Assembly (NCBI GenBank): GCA_022574205.1
Contig: JACZSL010000002.1
Location: forward strand, 11,965 to 75,964
DNA from: Patescibacteria group bacterium
GTDB lineage: Bacteria > Patescibacteriota > Minisyncoccia > Phycocordibacterales > JACZSL01
Length of the DNA: 64,000 nucleotides
Direction: 5' to 3'
Shown: piece after piece, positions 3,408 through 52,220 of the stretch
Position numbering within the stretch: position 1 is the stretch's first letter
Layout of the letters: each line of letters opens with the position of its first letter
Program-made: the position numbers and the translations under genes
Notes under the pieces: generated by a model
The model's database searches: none
The model's input: only the letters and a program-made list of their open reading frames with translations
What the model was told of the DNA's origin: nothing

Positions 3408-4022
3408 GTGAAAGAGTGTGTTTTAAAACATTTTGAGAAAGTAGACAAAAAACTTTTCGAGGCAGTAAGTCCTGAAATGAAAAGGGTGACTCTTGATAAT
3501 GCCAAAAAAACACCCAATGAATATTTTATATCTCTCTGCAGAAGTATCGTCGGCCAACAACTTTCAAGAAAAGCCGCGCGAACTATTTATCTTCGGTTCA
3601 AAGCACTCTTTCCGAAAAACACGATTTCTCCTAAAAAATTACTCAAGTTTACAGAACACGACCTTCGTGGAGTCGGTATGTCATACGGAAAAGCTCGAGC
3701 CTTACGCGACTTAGCAGATAAAATATTAGAGAAGAAAATATCTTTTGCGTGCATTCATGAATATGACAACGAAAAAATTGAGGACATGCTTTTACAAATC
3801 CACGGGGTAGGTCCGTGGACAGTTGAGATGTTTATGATGTTTTCGCTTGGACGCGAAGACATATTTTCAACAAAAGACTTGGGTCTTCAAAAAGGTGTTC
3901 GGAAGATCTACAATCTCAAATCAAAACCAGACGAAAAGAAAATGGAGAAGATCAGCAAAAAATGGTCCCCTTATCAAACCTACGCCGCTCTTATTCTTTG
4001 GAATTCTGTAGATAATCAATAA
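3408..4022 (+). CDS. alkA: DNA-3-methyladenine glycosylase II / HhH-GPD base-excision glycosylase
   Basis: HhH-GPD motif ...LLQIHGVGPWTVEMFMMFSLGREDIFSTKDLGLQKG... Confidence 0.7.
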   Translation: MKECVLKHFEKVDKKLFEAVSPEMKRVTLDNAKKTPNEYFISLCRSIVGQQLSRKAARTIYLRFKALFPKNTISPKKLLKFTEHDLRGVGMSYGKARALRDLADKILEKKISFACIHEYDNEKIEDMLLQIHGVGPWTVEMFMMFSLGREDIFSTKDLGLQKGVRKIYNLKSKPDEKKMEKISKKWSPYQTYAALILWNSVDNQ

Positions 4023-4040
4023 AAAACAAAAAGCGCCCGT

Positions 4041-4295
4041 CTAAGCAACGGACGCACTTTTTGTCTTCGGGGCTTTTGGCATCTTAGTATGATAAACTCT
4101 GATGCTTTGGTCATCTCGAGCGCCCACTGATCCGACTGCCCGGTCGATTTCTTCTTCTCTTTCTGCAACAAATATTGCTCCATGGGGTTCGCCTGGAATG
4201 ACGAATGCCCATGGCTTCTGCACTATTCCGCAGGCAATTAGAATACTTTCTTCAGGACTCACCGTAACACTATTACGCTTAGGTGAAATATACAT
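4041..4295 (-). CDS. hypothetical small protein
   Basis: 84-aa ORF with protein-like composition, convergent with alkA; no recognisable family. Confidence 0.25.
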   Translation of the reverse strand: MYISPKRNSVTVSPEESILIACGIVQKPWAFVIPGEPHGAIFVAEREEEIDRAVGSVGARDDQSIRVYHTKMPKAPKTKSASVA

Positions 4296-4489
4296 ATTTT
4301 TCTCCCAAATAAAAGTTACATTGCGGTGTGACTCCTATCTTAATTATGCTCTTTAAAACAAGAGTTAAAAGAGTGCGGGTGTGGACAACTCAAAAATCTG
4401 TGGTTTTACCACAGATTTCATAAGATACCTAGCTTTGTAAAACGAAAACACCCAAGGGGTTTTCATTTACCCCTTGAGCGATTACTTTT

Positions 4490-4656
4490 TACTTGAGTGC
4501 TTCTCTAATCTGTTGCTTTGTCACCAAACTGCGATGACTCATCTGACCCCATATGAAAGAAACTCTCCGCGCTAAACTTTCGTTTGGCGACATACTCCGT
4601 CCTGCTGATTTGCGCAACGTTTCAAGCAATTCTGACGAAGTCTTAAGTTCATTCAT
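4490..4656 (-). CDS. hypothetical small protein (~55 aa), below the ORF-track length cutoff
   Basis: Manual translation MNELKTSSELLETLRKSAGRSMSPNESLARRVSFIWGQMSHRSLVTKQQIREALK. Two hairpins followed by T-runs lie downstream on the minus strand at about 4385-4410 and 4455-4485. Confidence 0.25.
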
Positions 4657-21293: not shown

Positions 21294-21420
21294 CCCGATA
21301 GTAATAGGACACGGACACAGACTGTCCTTGCCACAAGATTAAACTTTCATTAATGTTCGACTTTTCCATTATATTTTGTCTCAGTGTCCGTCCTGCTTGC
21401 CGGCAGGCAGGGATTACTAT
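21294..21420 (-). repeat. ~130-bp repeated leader/MITE-like element, copy 1 (ends exactly at the NUDIX start codon)
   Basis: ~80% identical to 53081-53210; terminal inverted repeats cccgatagtaat/attactat(aagg); internal GC palindrome cctgcttgccggcaggcagg. Confidence 0.6.
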
Positions 21421-21431
21421 AAGGACTCATG

Positions 21432-21513
21432 TGCCCAGGGGGGGACTTGAACCCCCAAGCCGTGAAGCATACGCCCCTCAAGCGTACGAGTTTACCAATT
21501 TCTCCACCTGGGC
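21432..21513 (-). tRNA. tRNA-Leu (GAG), long variable arm
   Basis: Reverse complement GCCCAGGTGGAGAAATTGGTAAAC..TACGCTTGAGGGGCGTA..GGTTCAAGTCCCCCCCTGGGCA. Confidence 0.8.
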
Positions 21514-22188
21514 TTACAGTGTTTTATTTACGACACTTAATGCTTTTTCTATTTTTCTGCGTTTGCGAGATAAGCATATCACGTTTTTGTCGTAATACAT
21601 TTTTTTTAGGATCTTTAGTGATTCACTTTTTGCAAACCTTAATTGGTGTACGTTACCAAATTTGGAGCACACAATATGCCCTTTCACACTGATTAATTTC
21701 CCGAGCTCCTCTTTTATCCAATCTATGTGTTTTCTACTAGCAGAAGCAAAAACAACGTAAAACATGTAGCTTTTTTTCCAACGAGGATCCCAATACGAAT
21801 AAAAACACCCATCCCCATCATGATGACCTCTAAGAAAATCAAAGAAGTATGTTAGTGGAATTTCTATCTTGCCTATAATTTTTGTCTTGGCTGGACTAAA
21901 GCCAGCACCCAAAAGAAATTTGTACAACTTGACACTACCAAACTGAATTCTTGTGGTTCTTTTGCCAGTATGGGTAGAAATTTTGGTTCCAATTTTAACA
22001 TTAATGTTAAGACAACGCATAAAATTTAAAAGTTGTTCTTTGTCCTTGGAGGTTAAGTCAAAATGTCTTCCATCTATCGAGAGACTTCCATCAGTAGCTA
22101 AAAGCCCCATTGCATATGCAAAATTTGGACTCCACTTGGTACTTATTTCACTATTTCTCTTCACATTAGTCGTGCAATAATCATACAA
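21514..22188 (-). CDS. LAGLIDADG homing endonuclease (two-motif, single chain); its stop directly abuts the tRNA-Leu 5' end
   Basis: LLATDGSLSIDG and FLRGHHDGDGCF LAGLIDADG motifs. Confidence 0.75.
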   Translation of the reverse strand: MYDYCTTNVKRNSEISTKWSPNFAYAMGLLATDGSLSIDGRHFDLTSKDKEQLLNFMRCLNINVKIGTKISTHTGKRTTRIQFGSVKLYKFLLGAGFSPAKTKIIGKIEIPLTYFFDFLRGHHDGDGCFYSYWDPRWKKSYMFYVVFASASRKHIDWIKEELGKLISVKGHIVCSKFGNVHQLRFAKSESLKILKKMYYDKNVICLSRKRRKIEKALSVVNKTL

Positions 22189-22265
22189 AATATATCATTT
22201 CTGCTCAAGTATATAGCGTATACCACAGAAATTAAAATAAAAATCGTACCTATATGGTACAACTT

Positions 22266-22799
22266 TTATTTCTTCTCTTCTTTTTTTTGTTCAGCTTTCG
22301 GAGTCTCTTCAACTTTTGTATCCGTAGTAGAGCTCTCTTTTACCGGATCTTTCGTTTCTTTTTGTTCTTCTTTGGCTGATTCTGTATTTAGAGCATCTTC
22401 GGCTGCAGCTTTTGCTTTTTCTGCAATATCACTTTCTGTTGCAAGATCCATGAGTCTCATATGGCGCATCTGGCGACGGATTTCACGTGCAACTTTTTCG
22501 CGAATATAATACAGTTTCGATCTGCTGACTTTGCTTCTTCGGACGATTTCAATTTTATCAATCATCGGCGAGTAAAGTGGAAAAACCTTTTCAATGCCGA
22601 AGCCGTCCGAAACACGTCTGACTGTAAAAGTCGCGCCGGCCTCGTTACCGTGCTTCCTAGCAAGTACTAAACCCTCAAATGCCTGCAAGCGAGTCTTTCC
22701 TTTTTCCTGGATTTTTTGCCATACACGCACAGTGTCACCAGCACGAATACCGATGTCACGTCTACTTTTCATATTTACTTGCGATGTTGTGATTGCCAT
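22266..22799 (-). CDS. rplS: Ribosomal protein L19 with a Lys/Glu-rich C-terminal extension
   Basis: ...[58 protein letters not shown]...; start chosen at MAITTSQ by alignment to L19. Confidence 0.85.
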
Positions 22800-23004
22800 A
22801 CGCCTGAATAGGCCAAACTTTAGCACAAGAAGTGCGGTTGTGCAAGAATACGCTAGATTCTGAGCGCTTTTATGGAGCTAAAATCACAGACTATTTTTGA
22901 ATGTCCCAGAAACTGTTTACGAAACGGGTGGATTGTCGACAGCCTACGCTCTCCATCGCTACTTACCTTACCACCCACTACCTACTACGATCGGTTGTAG
23001 TACC

Positions 23005-35207: not shown

Positions 35208-36029
35208 TTACTGATAAGAAGCGATTGCTCTTTCTAGTATCTCCCTTTTTTCAAGATTCTGTTTCCATATACTATTCGAGCGGTTTCCGTTTATGCACAC
35301 GCCGGGAGAGAAATTGATTTCTTTTTGGAATTTTTGTAGATTCTCTTTTCCAACAATAACAACCTCATTTGGCTTTTGAATAGACGAGCCAATATCAAAA
35401 TCGAGAAGGAGTATTTTAATAGTTTCCAAAACGGAGGTGTCTTTTTGGTAGCCGCGCACTCTGCGTGATCTATTATTAAAATTCATACATCCTTCATCGT
35501 CAAAAAATGCTCTTAAAAATTCGCGCTTAAGATGTTTTGGAAATGTATTTACGTTTGAAAAAAGCTCCTGGGATTTCTTTTTTATATGAGCGGCAAGTGC
35601 AACATTAAAATAACTAATTCGGAGTACTCCTGTAGACTTATTACAATAACGAGTGGGTTCAAAGTCGTATATTTCTTTCATAATAGTCTCAACTCTTTTA
35701 ATCAAACTCGTGCTTCTATTATTATAAATACAGCCATGGGTGTTTATTTCTCCATCAAACAAAAAATGAGAAATGAGAAGTACCATGTTCGTATTCCATG
35801 TTGAGAATTCTTTAAAACTTCTTGAACTTTTTCCTTTCCGGTTTTCAGACATCCTAATAATCCTTGTGCGTGACGCGTCCTGGATCATTCTCAATTTTTG
35901 AGTGCTTAGAGGAATGTCGCGTATGTGAAAATAGACTGATGTTTTCGGTCGGCCTGTGATTTTAACAATCTCAGGTAGGGTGTGATCCTGACTTCGTAAG
36001 ACAACGCATTGCTGTTTAAAATTATTCAT
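35208..36029 (-). CDS. LAGLIDADG homing endonuclease (two-motif); its start codon lies 2 nt after the tRNA-Lys 3' end
   Basis: LISHFLFDGEINTHGC and FLRAFFDDEGCMNF motifs. Confidence 0.7.
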   Translation of the reverse strand: MNNFKQQCVVLRSQDHTLPEIVKITGRPKTSVYFHIRDIPLSTQKLRMIQDASRTRIIRMSENRKGKSSRSFKEFSTWNTNMVLLISHFLFDGEINTHGCIYNNRSTSLIKRVETIMKEIYDFEPTRYCNKSTGVLRISYFNVALAAHIKKKSQELFSNVNTFPKHLKREFLRAFFDDEGCMNFNNRSRRVRGYQKDTSVLETIKILLLDFDIGSSIQKPNEVVIVGKENLQKFQKEINFSPGVCINGNRSNSIWKQNLEKREILERAIASYQ

Positions 36030-36030
36030 G

Positions 36031-36103
36031 TCCGCCCAGCAGGACTCGAACCTGCGACCTTGAAGTTAAAAGCTTCCTGCTCTACCAGCTGAGCTATGGG
36101 CGG
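36031..36103 (-). tRNA. tRNA-Lys (TTT)
   Basis: Reverse complement CCGCCCATAGCTCAGCTGGTAGAGCAGGAAGCTTTTAACTTCAAGGTCGCAGGTTCGAGTCCTGCTGGGCGGA; anticodon loop CTTTTAA; unusual C1:G72. Confidence 0.75.
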
Positions 36104-36285
36104 ATGTATTATTATCGCACGAGCTACCAAGACAGCTATGGGCGGATGTATTATTATCGCACGAGCTACCAAGACAGCTATGGGCGGATGTATTATTATC
36201 GCACGAGCTACCAAGACAGCTATGGGCGGATGTATTGTTCGACTGTTATTTACCAAAACAGCTATGGGCGGTTGCCTTTATATAG
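36094..36285. repeat. 42-bp tandem direct repeat array: 3 identical copies, a diverged 4th and a partial 5th; each copy begins with the first 10 nt of tRNA-Lys
   Basis: Unit ctatgggcggatgtattattatcgcacgagctaccaagacag at 36094, 36136, 36178, 36220 (diverged), 36262 (partial); each unit carries a TAATAAT -10-like box. Confidence 0.85.
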
Positions 36286-36355
36286 TAACATAGAGAGGTT
36301 CTACTTTCTAGTTTAAACTTACACGCAAACTTGCGCTAGTTATTATACACGCAAA

Positions 36356-48858: not shown

Positions 48859-49962
48859 TTACTTATTCATTGGCATAACAAGATAAAGGTATGATGGGTC
48901 GCTCACACCTTCCATAACCATTGGTTTCCCAAGGCCACTAAAAGACAGGGAAACACTATCTGATGGGATAATTTGTAGTGCGTCAGTAATATATCGGTGA
49001 TTAAAGTTAATATCTAAATCTTCTCCATCAACAGCTGCTTGGAGTTGTTCTGTTGTCTCTCCTACATCTTGATTACTTGAAGTTAGGGTACATTTTCTTT
49101 GTTTTGATGAAATATGAAAACAAACCTGATTAAACTTATCAGAGAAAATATTTATTTTCTTTAAACTATTAATAAGGTCTTGTTTTAGTGTAATAATTTT
49201 TGTTGTGACTTTTTTAGGAATAATTTGGTGGTAATCTGGGTAAATACCGTCAATTAGCCTTGATGTTATGTATATGTTGTCAGATGAGAAAGATATTTGA
49301 TTTTTAGTAAAAGTTACTATAACTTCTCCAATATTTGAGTGTTCTAGTGCTTTTATTATTTCTGGTATGTTTTTAATAGGTATAATAAGTGGGTTAAAAT
49401 TTGGAACATTTTTATTTATTATAACTTTCTCAGATAGACGGAATGAGTCTGTTGCTGTAAATGTTATTTTTTTGTTTTGTATAGATATATATACACTTGC
49501 AAGTTCTGGTTTAATTGATAAGTTGGATGAACTAAACCATACTGAATTTAGGCCATTAAGAAAATCCTTAATGTCTATTGTAAATGAATTATTACTTTTA
49601 ACTTTAGGTAGTAATGGAAAATCTTCATGTGGTAGTGATTTTATAAGTGTTGAACTTGTGTGTGTTATTATTGAAAGGTTGTCATTTTTACTTAATAATT
49701 TAATTGATACACCATTATATATAGAATTTATAACGTTATAAAAAACTGAACCAGAAACTGCCATTATACCATCTTCTATTATTTTTGCTGGAATATTAAC
49801 TTCAACACCTAAATCAAGATTTGTTGCTTTTAGTTTTAAACTTGATCCTTTTGCCTCTATTAAAATACATCCAAGAACAGGAAGATTAAGATTTTTTCCA
49901 ACAGCCCTTTCAACAATATAAATATTATCAACGAGATTTTCTTTTAAACATTCAACCTTCAT
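48859..49962 (-). CDS. dnaN: DNA polymerase III beta sliding clamp
   Basis: MKVECLKENLVDNIYIVERAVGKNLNLPVLGCILIEA... three-domain clamp. Confidence 0.9.
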   Translation of the reverse strand: MKVECLKENLVDNIYIVERAVGKNLNLPVLGCILIEAKGSSLKLKATNLDLGVEVNIPAKIIEDGIMAVSGSVFYNVINSIYNGVSIKLLSKNDNLSIITHTSSTLIKSLPHEDFPLLPKVKSNNSFTIDIKDFLNGLNSVWFSSSNLSIKPELASVYISIQNKKITFTATDSFRLSEKVIINKNVPNFNPLIIPIKNIPEIIKALEHSNIGEVIVTFTKNQISFSSDNIYITSRLIDGIYPDYHQIIPKKVTTKIITLKQDLINSLKKINIFSDKFNQVCFHISSKQRKCTLTSSNQDVGETTEQLQAAVDGEDLDINFNHRYITDALQIIPSDSVSLSFSGLGKPMVMEGVSDPSYLYLVMPMNK

Positions 49963-50179
49963 ATTCTATATATTATTTATTTTTACTATTAACACTGTGT
50001 ATATGTATAAAACTTAATAAACCCTTATAATAAGCTCTTTTCTAAAACATCTACATAAACAACATGTGATTAACTTATAATAATATGTGGACTATTTTAC
50101 ATTAAATAAACTAAAATACATTTTTACACCAACTTATTAACAAATCATCCACATAATAAAATACGTTTTCCACAAATTG
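49963..50179. promoter_or_regulatory. Candidate oriC segment / DnaA-box cluster in the AT-rich dnaA-dnaN intergenic region
   Basis: tcatccaca (50145-50153) and ttttccaca (50166-50174) are each 8/9 to TTATCCACA; tgtggacta (50087-50095); region about 80% AT. Confidence 0.4.
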
Positions 50180-51538
50180 TTATTTTAGAATCATACGAAT
50201 TTGATTTATTTCCTGTTCAAGAACACTATCAACTTTTAAATTTTTTCTAATTTTTTCACATGAATGTATAACTGTTGTGTGATCTCTACCACCAAGTTTT
50301 TGTCCAATACTCGGATAAGAAATACCAAAATCTTCCCGTAAAATATACATAATAAGCTGACGAGGCTTAACTATTTCTTTCCGTCGAGTTTTCTCATAAA
50401 TATTTTGCTCAGTAATATCATAAAATTCCGCAATTTTCCTCACAACTTCCTTTGCAGATATAAGTTTTTTTGTTCTTGTATTATTTTTTATTAAGCTTTC
50501 AATTTCAGGAAGTGTTAGGGTTGTATCTTGAAGTTGAGATTGACATATAATAGTGTTAAGTGCTCCCTCAAGATCACGAATATTCCCTTGTATTGTTGAA
50601 GCAAGGTAGTCAATAATTTTATCTGAAAGTAATAAATTATTATGTAGTGCTTTAGATTTTAAAATAGCAACACGCGAGTCGTGATCTGGGGCTGGTATAT
50701 CAACAATCATACCAGCGCCAAAACGGCTCTTCAGACGACTTTCAAGATCTGGGATATAGTTTGGGTGCTTATCTGATGTTAATATAATCTGTTTATTATT
50801 ATCATAAAGAGCATTAAATAGATGAAAAAGCTCCTCCTGAGTCTTTTCCTTCTTAGAAAGAAATTGAATATCGTCCATAATAAGAACATCATACTGACGA
50901 TACTTCTCTTTAAACACATTAACTTTAGCCTCCTGAACAGCGTTCACATAATCAACAGTAAATTTCTCACTCGTTAAATAGAATACTTTTCTAGCAGGAT
51001 TTATTTTCTTTAATTGATTACCAACAGCTTGTGCAAGGTGTGTTTTTCCATGACCTGTTGGACTATAAAGAAAAAGAGGATTATATGCAATTCCAGGTTT
51101 TTTAATAACAGCCTGGCTTGCTGCATGAGCCAACTCATTAAATGAACCAACAACAAAATTTTCAAATGTATATCGTGGATTTAAATTATCATTTTTATTG
51201 ATATAAAAATCCTTAAGTGGTAACTCATATGTTGGTGTTGGTTTTTTAGCCACACCACCAACCAACTCCTTTATCACACTATTATCACGATTTTTTACAA
51301 TATTATATTCAAGTCCACGAACCCCGTCAGAAAAACCCCTAAGTGTTTTAAGAATAAATCTATGATATTTTTGCACCATCCAATCCTTAACAAACTGGTT
51401 CGGCACACCAAGGAAAATAACCCCACTCTCCTGTTTAATAATGTACGTATCCTTAAACCATGTGCTGAAATTTGCTCGTGATATATTAAGTTCAATATCA
51501 ACAAGTGTATTTTCCCATAATTGTTTATTACCAAGCAT
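50180..51538 (-). CDS. dnaA: Chromosomal replication initiator DnaA
   Basis: LFLYSPTGHGKTHLAQAVGN (Walker A); C-terminal HTH ...GGRDHTTVIHSCEKI... Confidence 0.95.
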   Translation of the reverse strand: MLGNKQLWENTLVDIELNISRANFSTWFKDTYIIKQESGVIFLGVPNQFVKDWMVQKYHRFILKTLRGFSDGVRGLEYNIVKNRDNSVIKELVGGVAKKPTPTYELPLKDFYINKNDNLNPRYTFENFVVGSFNELAHAASQAVIKKPGIAYNPLFLYSPTGHGKTHLAQAVGNQLKKINPARKVFYLTSEKFTVDYVNAVQEAKVNVFKEKYRQYDVLIMDDIQFLSKKEKTQEELFHLFNALYDNNKQIILTSDKHPNYIPDLESRLKSRFGAGMIVDIPAPDHDSRVAILKSKALHNNLLLSDKIIDYLASTIQGNIRDLEGALNTIICQSQLQDTTLTLPEIESLIKNNTRTKKLISAKEVVRKIAEFYDITEQNIYEKTRRKEIVKPRQLIMYILREDFGISYPSIGQKLGGRDHTTVIHSCEKIRKNLKVDSVLEQEINQIRMILK

Positions 51539-51723
51539 GTGGTGAAATGTAATGCTAATAAGCCGAATAAGATATGTATGATTATCAAATTATACTCTTC
51601 TCGTGGAAAAGTAAATCTTGAAAAACTTGAATAAGTATGTTAATAAAATGTGCATAAGACATAATTGTTACTGTACTAAATAAAAGTAGTCAGGCTTTAA
51701 TTATTCTGTTATAATGTTAAATA
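51539..51723. promoter_or_regulatory. Divergent dnaA/rpmH promoter region with DnaA-box-like sites (second oriC candidate)
   Basis: tgtgcataa (51649-51657) is 8/9 to TGTGGATAA; cgtggaaaa; AT-rich. Confidence 0.35.
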
Positions 51724-51858
51724 ATGTCTATTACATACAAACCAAAGAGGCGAAAAAGGGCTAAAACTCACGGTTTTTTAAGCCGCAAAAAGACACCAGG
51801 TGGACGTAAAGTCCTTAAAAGACGAGCACGAAAAGGAAGAACGCACTTGTCTGTGTAG
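51724..51858 (+). CDS. rpmH: Ribosomal protein L34 (44 aa; below the ORF-track cutoff)
   Basis: Manual translation [44 protein letters not shown]. Confidence 0.9.
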
Positions 51859-51890
51859 AATTATGCCTGTGTATAACACACTCTAGAATT

Positions 51891-52220
51891 GTGAATAAAA
51901 GAAAACCGGTAACTAGAAAAATTTTCGACCGCATTTTAAAAACCGGAAAAACATACCATCAACCACTATTTAGTTTTCACACACTACACACACTTGAAAA
52001 TGTATACAGGATTGTGTGTGTTGTACCAAAGAGCACGGAAAAGTCTGCTGTTGTTAGAAACAAGTTACGACGTCGTTGTTACTATGCGATTTATAAACTA
52101 CTCAACAATAATAAGTATTTTTTAGCAATCCTATTTATTAAATCAGGCGCGAAACGCCTTCCATATAAATTATTTGAGGAAAAGATAGCCGTTCTTCTCA
52201 AAAGATCCGGCATACTGTAA
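51891..52220 (+). CDS. rnpA: RNase P protein component
   Basis: Basic protein ...VVRNKLRRRCYYAIYKLL...; canonical rpmH-rnpA order. Confidence 0.85.
   Translation: MNKRKPVTRKIFDRILKTGKTYHQPLFSFHTLHTLENVYRIVCVVPKSTEKSAVVRNKLRRRCYYAIYKLLNNNKYFLAILFIKSGAKRLPYKLFEEKIAVLLKRSGIL

Follow-up and report, generated by a model that had tools for sequence, protein, structure and literature searches.

Homing genes are known to spare their hosts by residing in introns, in inteins, or between genes. To our knowledge, little has been documented on free-standing homing endonucleases in the chromosomes of cellular bacteria. Here we analyse a LAGLIDADG gene in a 64,000-nucleotide stretch of the chromosome of a Patescibacteria group bacterium (contig JACZSL010000002.1; the whole stretch is referred to as the window). 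On the coding strand, the order of the locus is rplS, a terminator-like hairpin, a relic of the 5′ half of tRNA-Leu, a putative promoter, the endonuclease open reading frame (ORF1), and an intact tRNA-Leu(GAG). We consider it probable that this unit is a free-standing LAGLIDADG homing-endonuclease cassette, predicted to cleave and to move, that resides at the tRNA-Leu(GAG) gene of Paceibacteria-type Patescibacteria and probably has this gene as its target. The arrangement of a conserved tRNA-half relic with its promoter, an endonuclease gene, and an intact tRNA as one cassette, apparently of single origin, is newly described here; a literature search found no description of tRNA-flanking LAGLIDADG genes in Patescibacteria.

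SegB, a free-standing GIY-YIG homing endonuclease in the tRNA gene cluster of phage T4, acts during co-infection. Like the cassette, SegB is intron-less and lies between conserved genes; it cuts a neighbouring target in the tRNA region and its carrier is immune by target divergence, both of which are predicted for the cassette as well. However, SegB is a GIY-YIG enzyme of a phage, whereas the cassette encodes a LAGLIDADG enzyme and resides in a cellular chromosome, and we know of no partial tRNA duplication for SegB. Integrase-type elements in tRNA genes employ tyrosine integrases and att sites, regenerate the 3′ end of the tRNA, and leave a partial repeat. They resemble the cassette in that a tRNA gene is broken and regenerated from an element-borne copy, as is proposed here. 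In contrast, the cassette has no integrase, contains a single endonuclease gene, and has the 5′ half of the tRNA duplicated rather than the 3′ end.

The closest mechanistic precedent is provided by fungal mitochondria. Allomyces macrogynus atp6 and Glomus atp6, atp9, cox2, and nad3 contain mobile endonuclease ORFs (mORFs), which carry a replacement gene terminus and have the displaced terminus alongside (PMC3630166). As in the cassette, an intron-less ORF (LAGLIDADG or GIY-YIG) is inserted in a conserved gene, a duplicate of the interrupted part keeps the function, and a non-functional fragment stands beside the ORF (PMC3630166). The relic, ORF1, and the intact tRNA reproduce this arrangement of a displaced partial copy and a working copy. 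However, the gene concerned is a bacterial chromosomal tRNA gene rather than a mitochondrial protein gene, and the geometry is mirrored, with the 5′ fragment upstream and the complete gene downstream. Nor does the rule for fungal mORFs hold, in which the displaced fragment is native and the working segment is imported. In the cassette, the displaced fragment is conserved and cassette-like, with a T insertion shared by all copies, and the working gene copy is the variable one. In addition, the displaced fragment appears to have been recruited as promoter sequence, unlike in fungal mORFs.

Endonucleases of tRNA group I introns share an anticodon-loop target with the cassette, and some of them occur in the same phylum. 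A LAGLIDADG enzyme is encoded in a cyanobacterial tRNA-Arg(CCU) group I intron at position 36/37, and an HNH enzyme in a Patescibacteria tRNA-Asn group I intron at position 35/36; the same study reports no tRNA-Leu(GAG) case and no LAGLIDADG gene in Patescibacteria tRNA genes (PMC13011429). The cassette differs from these introns in having no ribozyme and no split exons, and in the apparent restoration of the tRNA by duplication. LAGLIDADG endonucleases of the candidate phyla radiation (CPR) sit in rRNA insertion sequences, as described in a study that covers rRNA genes only and leaves tRNA unmentioned (PMC11270868). Those enzymes and archaeal I-Tsp061I (2dch) belong to the same superfamily as ORF1, and the former share the host group with the cassette; unlike the cassette, both lie inside rRNA introns or insertions.

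The endonuclease gene and its junction with tRNA-Leu(GAG)

The features of the locus, in window coordinates, are as follows.

21431-21513, minus strand: intact tRNA-Leu(GAG), identified by ARAGORN; class II with a long variable arm, CCA not encoded
21514-22188, minus strand: LAGLIDADG endonuclease ORF (ORF1), 224 aa, TTG start at 22188
22180-22208, minus strand: promoter-like site of the endonuclease-tRNA unit, from a consensus scan
22204-22227, minus strand: tRNA-Leu(GAG) 5′-half relic, TGTGGTATACGCTATATACTTGAG, seen in the sequence
22234-22272, minus strand: terminator-like hairpin with T-run, right after the rplS stop, between rplS and the cassette
22266-22826, minus strand: rplS (ribosomal protein L19), conserved neighbour upstream of the endonuclease gene

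A preliminary description of the window had reported a two-motif LAGLIDADG gene at 21514-22188 whose stop codon adjoins the 5′ end of an intact tRNA-Leu(GAG), and both statements are confirmed. The stop codon TAA occupies 21514-21516 and touches base +1 of the tRNA, whose 5′ end is at 21513 on the same strand. In public assemblies, the same ORF is called from GTG at 22164, giving a protein of 216 aa. The tRNA scores 53.4 bits (E=1.8e-10) against the Rfam tRNA model in a local search of 21431-21513. The whole-window Rfam scan at the gathering threshold missed this tRNA, a speed-filter artefact that is relevant to class II tRNAs.

The junction recurs across relatives. A scan of one genome per species yielded 395 loci, the best 80 of which were examined. 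The tRNA-Leu(GAG) gene follows on the same strand in all 72 loci with sequence past the endonuclease gene; the remaining 8 of the 80 contigs end within about 90 nt of it. The gap between stop codon and tRNA ranges from -36 to +13 nt in the 72 loci, with one case of +46, and the ORF reads into the tRNA in 13 loci. Because the same ORF-tRNA junction is found in 72/72 informative loci, the adjacency is beyond chance, and the link to tRNA-Leu(GAG) is a property of the whole endonuclease family. On the other side, rplS lies directly upstream of the endonuclease gene in 75/80 loci, and the endonuclease-tRNA pair is still intact in the five loci without rplS.

Both LAGLIDADG motifs (...GLLATDG... and ...FLRGHxDGDG...) are present in ORF1 and invariant in its homologues. 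In particular, T32-D33-G34 and D124-G125-D126-G127, including the catalytic Asp residues D33 and D126, are unchanged in an alignment of 21 diverse homologues. The protein scores 29.8 bits against Pfam LAGLIDADG_3, above the cut-off of 22.5. Its homologues form 1,475 clusters; the best 120 homologous clusters share 58-88% identity with it and are 209-271 aa long, nearly all 214-243 aa. The AF2 model of ORF1 (pLDDT 88, pTM 0.86) has a tandem LAGLIDADG fold (alpha-beta-beta-alpha-beta-beta-alpha). The top Foldseek matches, all with probability 1.00, are I-Tsp061I (2dch, the best), an intein endonuclease, I-AniI, WhiA, and I-DmoI, and phmmer matches ORF1 to I-Tsp061I as well (E=4.9e-5). Judged by sequence and modelled fold, ORF1 is a genuine member of the LAGLIDADG superfamily, of the single-chain, pseudo-dimeric type. 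It is predicted to cut both DNA strands at a specific site, with the 4-nt 3′ overhangs of this superfamily. Searches of NCBIfam and of defence systems gave no match for ORF1.

Nearly all copies of the gene are intact. A single uninterrupted full-length match is obtained for 89 of 90 genomic copies, and the sole defect is one in-frame TAA in locus L039. The ratio of nonsynonymous to synonymous substitution rates (dN/dS) is 0.05-0.15 for close pairs, with synonymous sites near saturation. These data show that ORF1 encodes a two-domain LAGLIDADG enzyme that is intact and under strong constraint. Such genes are annotated as 'hypothetical' or 'intein-containing', and the relic, a fragment of a pseudo-tRNA, is overlooked by annotators. 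The L039 locus also has a second, unrelated LAGLIDADG-like ORF upstream, with the motif LVDGEGSF (coordinates for the L039 entry, 1221-1685 and 3983-4640).

The tRNA-Leu relic, transcription and the intron question

In the preliminary description the gene was merely next to a tRNA. The adjacency stands, but the gene actually lies between a tRNA-Leu 5′-half relic and the intact tRNA. The relic comprises the D-loop/D-stem, the 5′ strand of the anticodon stem, and the anticodon loop up to the GAG of tRNA-Leu(GAG), and its consensus across the family is aTTGGTAkACGCTAynnnCTTGAG. The motif is present in 69/77 occupied loci, i.e., those with the endonuclease gene, 20-100 nt (occasionally more) before the start codon. 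In 48 empty loci, i.e., those without the gene, the pattern has only 3 matches, which are weak and displaced and are judged spurious. The relic generally spans tRNA positions about 14-36, and most relics are without the acceptor-stem strand. In L017 and L154, the relic spans positions 1-37 and keeps the entire 5′ half of the tRNA, including the acceptor strand (nhmmer E=1.4e-7 and 2e-6).

The origin of the relic was examined with a hidden Markov model (HMM) built solely from empty-site tRNAs and searched against the regions upstream of the ORF. The search gave 31 matches at E<=10 and 8 at E<=0.01, extending from model positions 1-14 to 37-40, and zero matches in shuffled controls. A one-nt T insertion relative to real tRNAs is common to all relics. 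The relics resemble one another (>90% conserved positions) and not the resident tRNA, the resident tRNAs being the variable part. The shared insertion and the mutual resemblance indicate that the relic is of single origin and under selection. The relic is thus a derivative of tRNA-Leu that arose once, and it marks the tRNA gene itself as the probable original target. The ancestral insertion would have broken tRNA-Leu(GAG) near anticodon-loop position 36/37, and the function of the tRNA would have been restored by a complete downstream copy instead of splicing.

The relic is lacking in a small subclade (L024, L029, L032, L037, L039, and L072). Most of these loci have a TAGGGT-like motif a few nucleotides before the start codon (GCTAGGGT in L029, L037, and L072), a candidate for a promoter that has taken over.

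A promoter-like site overlaps the relic. In the window, the putative -35 element TTGAGC is the anticodon-loop part of the relic and is followed by a 17-nt spacer and the putative -10 element TATGAT. Comparison of the loci shows TATAAT-like boxes after the relic, in some cases extended by TGn, and T-rich runs before it in most loci. In 42/77 occupied loci, an in-frame ATG follows a -10-like hexamer at a distance of 4-9 nt, mostly 6-7 nt, suggesting that the endonuclease mRNA is leaderless or near-leaderless. The interval between ORF and tRNA is too short to hold a promoter or terminator, and the tRNA is therefore probably made from the same transcript. RNase P releases tRNA from precursor transcripts. 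In the proposed mechanism, the ORF and the tRNA would be transcribed together, often as a leaderless mRNA, and RNase P would free the tRNA; with the co-transcript processed in this way, the insertion would be phenotypically silent without an intron. Promoter elements would now come from the relic, which may in addition act as an operator or as a homology arm close to the break.

The same dependence of the tRNA on the cassette allows another explanation for the open reading frame, namely that the nuclease no longer homes and that the frame stays open because the essential tRNA-Leu(GAG) needs the cassette promoter as well as unbroken transcription and translation across the ORF, so that nonsense mutations would be polar. 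Such stranding agrees with the inheritance of the gene, which looks vertical (see below). It also agrees with the stop-to-tRNA gap of -36 to +13 nt, which leaves no room for a separate tRNA promoter, and with the terminator upstream of the cassette, owing to which the tRNA must be transcribed from the cassette promoter. However, polarity would keep the frame open and would not preserve about 50% invariant residues with both catalytic motifs, nor does it explain a dN/dS of 0.05-0.15, and we regard a stranded nuclease as improbable.

ORF1 stands alone, with its own start and stop, and is not embedded in an intron or intein. The downstream tRNA is complete by itself, and upstream there is only a 5′ fragment, so the two are not split exons. 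An Rfam search of 21350-22350 is negative for group I and other intron families even at E<=10, and the whole window has no group I intron match at the gathering threshold. The earlier view of an intron-less gene beside an intact tRNA is thereby borne out. What surrounds the ORF, however, appears to be a broken-and-restored tRNA gene with neither intron nor 3′ exon, which comes near the split gene that had been named as contrary to that view.

An ORF inside a degenerate group I (or other) intron of tRNA-Leu(GAG), with the relic as the 5′ exon, would account for the end of the relic at the anticodon (36/37), a known tRNA group I intron site, and Patescibacteria are rich in tRNA group I introns (PMC13011429). 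Against such an intron, there is no match to RF00028 or any other intron model even at E<=10, on which ground a group I intron around the ORF was rejected; the downstream tRNA is complete, its own 5′ half included; and most relics have no acceptor-stem strand. In addition, the spacers of about 20-100 nt between relic and ORF and 0-13 nt between ORF and tRNA are too short to leave room for a ribozyme core. An intron-encoded ORF is therefore highly improbable. Since tRNA introns are known to occur where the relic breaks off, at about 36/37 (PMC13011429), the free-standing cassette could nevertheless descend from an intron-borne ancestor.

Distribution, inheritance and the candidate target

Occupied and empty sites were compared in metagenome contigs selected by L19, a sample that is unbiased for the endonuclease and contains close and more distant relatives of the window's organism. 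Endonuclease-free alleles, the comparison with which the preliminary description had called for, are found in 48 of the 56 resolved L19-selected loci, in which rplS is directly followed by tRNA-Leu(GAG); the other 8 are occupied. For every occupied locus of this sample, the nearest L19 neighbours are empty loci. The rplS stop lies -15 to +12 nt from the 5′ end of tRNA-Leu(GAG) in 24/48 empty sites (L081-L160). As half of the empty sites have the rplS stop abutting the tRNA, it is native to this locus for an ORF to end at the 5′ end of the tRNA. The empty junctions imply an rplS-tRNA co-transcript that would be cut by RNase P, a form of mRNA-tRNA 'punctuation' in reduced genomes.

The closest syntenic pair consists of L001 (occupied) and L091 (empty), which have 94% L19 identity and only about 75% DNA identity. 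The two are homologous across rplS and again from precisely tRNA +1 onwards, with conservation of the flank downstream. The insertion boundaries are located by this pair only as far as the rplS stop and tRNA +1; a near-isogenic occupied/empty pair was sought for exact boundaries, and none closer than L001/L091 was found. No decayed copies or relic-only scars are present in the 48 empty sites. All five contigs with the window's exact NUDIX neighbour carry the endonuclease gene (5/5 population samples). Contigs breaking inside the tRNA were considered as a sign of population polymorphism and dropped, as empty-site contigs break at the tRNA too. Altogether, the cassette occupies one fixed site at which presence and absence vary among relatives, and it is widespread but patchy in Paceibacteria.

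The endonuclease is better conserved than its host genes, with a mean pairwise identity of 0.59, compared with 0.50 for rplS and 0.44 for rluD. The closest endonuclease pairs are the closest host-gene pairs, and the nearest neighbour agrees with that of rluD in 14/48 cases for the endonuclease and in 13/48 for rplS. At depth, the distance correlation is 0.40-0.50 between endonuclease and host genes versus 0.63-0.70 between two host genes, in sequences that are saturated. These comparisons suggest that the endonuclease has descended mostly vertically. Recent horizontal sweeps were rejected, as no genome pair has endonuclease identity far exceeding host-gene identity. A patchy distribution together with mainly vertical descent requires repeated homing gains or repeated clean losses. 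Mostly vertical inheritance with occasional gain by homing, or with loss, would thus produce the patchy distribution.

The relic offers a candidate for the recognition site. The enzyme would recognise roughly 22 bp of the D-arm and anticodon arm, kept in the relic and in many empty-site tRNAs, and the functional tRNA of occupied genomes would have diverged at the recognition region and thereby become immune. This candidate site is predicted from the relic; for matching, the extra T was removed from the relic core. The core is found within <=2 mismatches in 28/48 empty-site tRNAs versus 9/77 occupied-genome tRNAs (Fisher p=5e-8), and within 2 mismatches in 0/8 occupied tRNAs of the unbiased L19-selected sample. 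In a paired test, in which each occupied locus was set against its nearest empty relative and each empty locus was used once, 17 pairs have the carrier tRNA farther from the core and 5 have it closer (sign test p=0.017). In the D-stem and anticodon stem, carrier tRNAs retain their base pairing by compensatory changes. This is the pattern expected, in samples that are phylogenetically uneven, if D-arm/anticodon-arm DNA is recognised and carriers hold resistant alleles.

The relic therefore gives a concrete target prediction, a D-arm/anticodon-arm sequence of ~22 bp, and the divergence of carrier tRNAs may illustrate how a selfish nuclease shapes the evolution of tRNA sequences. The locus further suggests an extra route for homing genes to spare their hosts, present in hundreds of species, in which a tRNA gene would be cut, a full replacement supplied, and mRNA and tRNA separated by RNase P. 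The family also comprises many natural LAGLIDADG enzymes that are single-chain and compact (about 215 aa) and whose candidate targets co-vary with them, a resource that could aid meganuclease engineering.

Two functions had been suggested for the gene from the start, a tRNA-targeting homing or selfish system and a domesticated tRNA-processing nuclease. The former is the better supported, with a fixed site, presence and absence among relatives, and a tRNA-derived relic, and with cleavage as its predicted step. The latter is disfavoured, since most close relatives are without the gene and yet keep the tRNA; an essential domesticated tRNA-processing factor in particular was rejected, as 48/56 L19-selected loci retain the tRNA without the gene.

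Several points nevertheless weigh against a homing cassette, in which cleavage and homing are predicted steps. Recent horizontal movement is not visible: no pair has endonuclease identity far above its rplS or rluD identity, and at short range the endonuclease relationships track host genes as well as host genes track each other. Only 1/90 copies is decayed, which is unusual for a cycle of invasion, decay, and loss and fits a host-level benefit equally well. The relic is too strongly conserved for a promoter role to explain it fully. Phylogeny confounds the comparison of susceptible with immune tRNAs, as the empty-site sample is narrower than the occupied one, and the 9/77 occupied genomes mentioned above have tRNAs within 2 mismatches of the relic core.

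Some of these points favour the main rival, a domesticated endonuclease with a host-beneficial role. After a single insertion into tRNA-Leu, the enzyme would now be kept for a host function, and the patchiness would reflect repeated loss only. It could bind the relic as an operator, controlling tRNA-Leu(GAG) and its own expression, or cut foreign or competitor DNA with the ancestral tRNA-Leu sequence. Long-term purifying selection is strong (dN/dS 0.05-0.15 with saturated dS, 89/90 copies intact), the endonuclease is congruent with host genes at shallow depth, all population samples of the window's species (5/5) carry the gene, and the relic is of apparently single origin and conserved beyond promoter needs. 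In addition, WhiA and the I-AniI/bI3 maturases are cases in which the LAGLIDADG fold has been co-opted. However, most close relatives without the gene keep rplS-tRNA-Leu(GAG), indicating that any host function is dispensable. Both catalytic aspartates are invariant, unlike in WhiA-type domesticated proteins, and ORF1 has no defence-system or NCBIfam match. Finally, resident tRNAs diverging from the relic are what a self-targeting nuclease would select for. On balance, we consider domestication rather unlikely and prefer the homing cassette.

A second LAGLIDADG gene at tRNA-Lys(UUU)

The window contains another LAGLIDADG gene associated with a tRNA, with the following features.

35208-36029, minus strand: second LAGLIDADG_3 gene (ORF2), 273 aa, with an N-terminal helix-turn-helix (HTH)-like region
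36031-36103, minus strand: tRNA-Lys(UUU), Rfam 68.4 bits, upstream partner of ORF2
36092-36236, minus strand: tandem array of a 42-nt unit in 3.5 perfect copies, which lies upstream of tRNA-Lys and extends into it

The preliminary description had called this gene similarly fused to tRNA-Lys. The gene is real, scoring 41.7 bits against Pfam LAGLIDADG_3, but the geometry is opposite, with the start of the ORF at the 3′ end of the tRNA. In the window, the ATG of ORF2 lies 1-2 nt after the discriminator base of tRNA-Lys, and tRNA-Lys(UUU) ends 0-2 nt before the endonuclease ATG in 10/10 distinct loci. Cleavage at the tRNA-Lys 3′ end would leave an almost leaderless mRNA. ORF2 is unrelated to ORF1 beyond the motifs, and its family comprises 965 clusters.

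The two families together allow a tentative generalization, to which we give less than even chances, that Patescibacteria contain an undescribed class of homing elements which are intron-less, find a safe harbour at the ends of tRNA genes, and rely on tRNA processing in place of splicing. Two unrelated LAGLIDADG families, at tRNA-Leu and tRNA-Lys, would fit such a habit. The tRNA-Leu family would break the anticodon arm, bring a full replacement tRNA, and keep a disarmed copy of the target as promoter and perhaps operator. The tRNA-Lys family would begin translation 1-2 nt past the tRNA 3′ end and obtain a leaderless mRNA by RNase Z-type cleavage. An arms race would diversify the D-arm and anticodon stem of the resident tRNA.

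Each 42-nt unit upstream of tRNA-Lys opens with a degenerate copy of the tRNA-Lys 5′ end (its initial ~12 nt) and continues with a D-arm-like stretch that is likewise degenerate, and the last copy enters the tRNA itself. The units may have been left behind by repair or homing, or may serve as decoy sites. In L168, a comparable position holds one degenerate copy of the tRNA-Lys 5′ end. Directly before tRNA-Lys(UUU), at 36250-36320 of the window and in the corresponding regions of L161-L167, there is a conserved promoter-like block (GTAGAACC ... TATAAT-like ... AAGG); in the window, the tandem partial tRNA-Lys copies sit between this block and tRNA-Lys. Right after the endonuclease stop in L166 (2332-2365), the stretch GATTCCTGCTGGGCGCACCA resembles the T-stem, the acceptor 3′ strand, and the CCA of a tRNA, and may be a displaced tRNA-Lys 3′ end. 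A general 3′ tRNA-Lys relic downstream of the second endonuclease was rejected, as the stretch occurs in L166 only and not in the other nine loci examined.

Elsewhere, the neighbours of the cassette in the window include uppS, an rluD-like pseudouridine synthase gene, rplS, the NUDIX gene, and several tRNAs. Taken with the names that homologues bear, these genes assign the window to a Paceibacteria-type member of the Patescibacteria (CPR). The G+C content falls to 0.27-0.33 at 49000-52000, compared with ~0.40 elsewhere in the window, and this segment could be foreign or fast-evolving.

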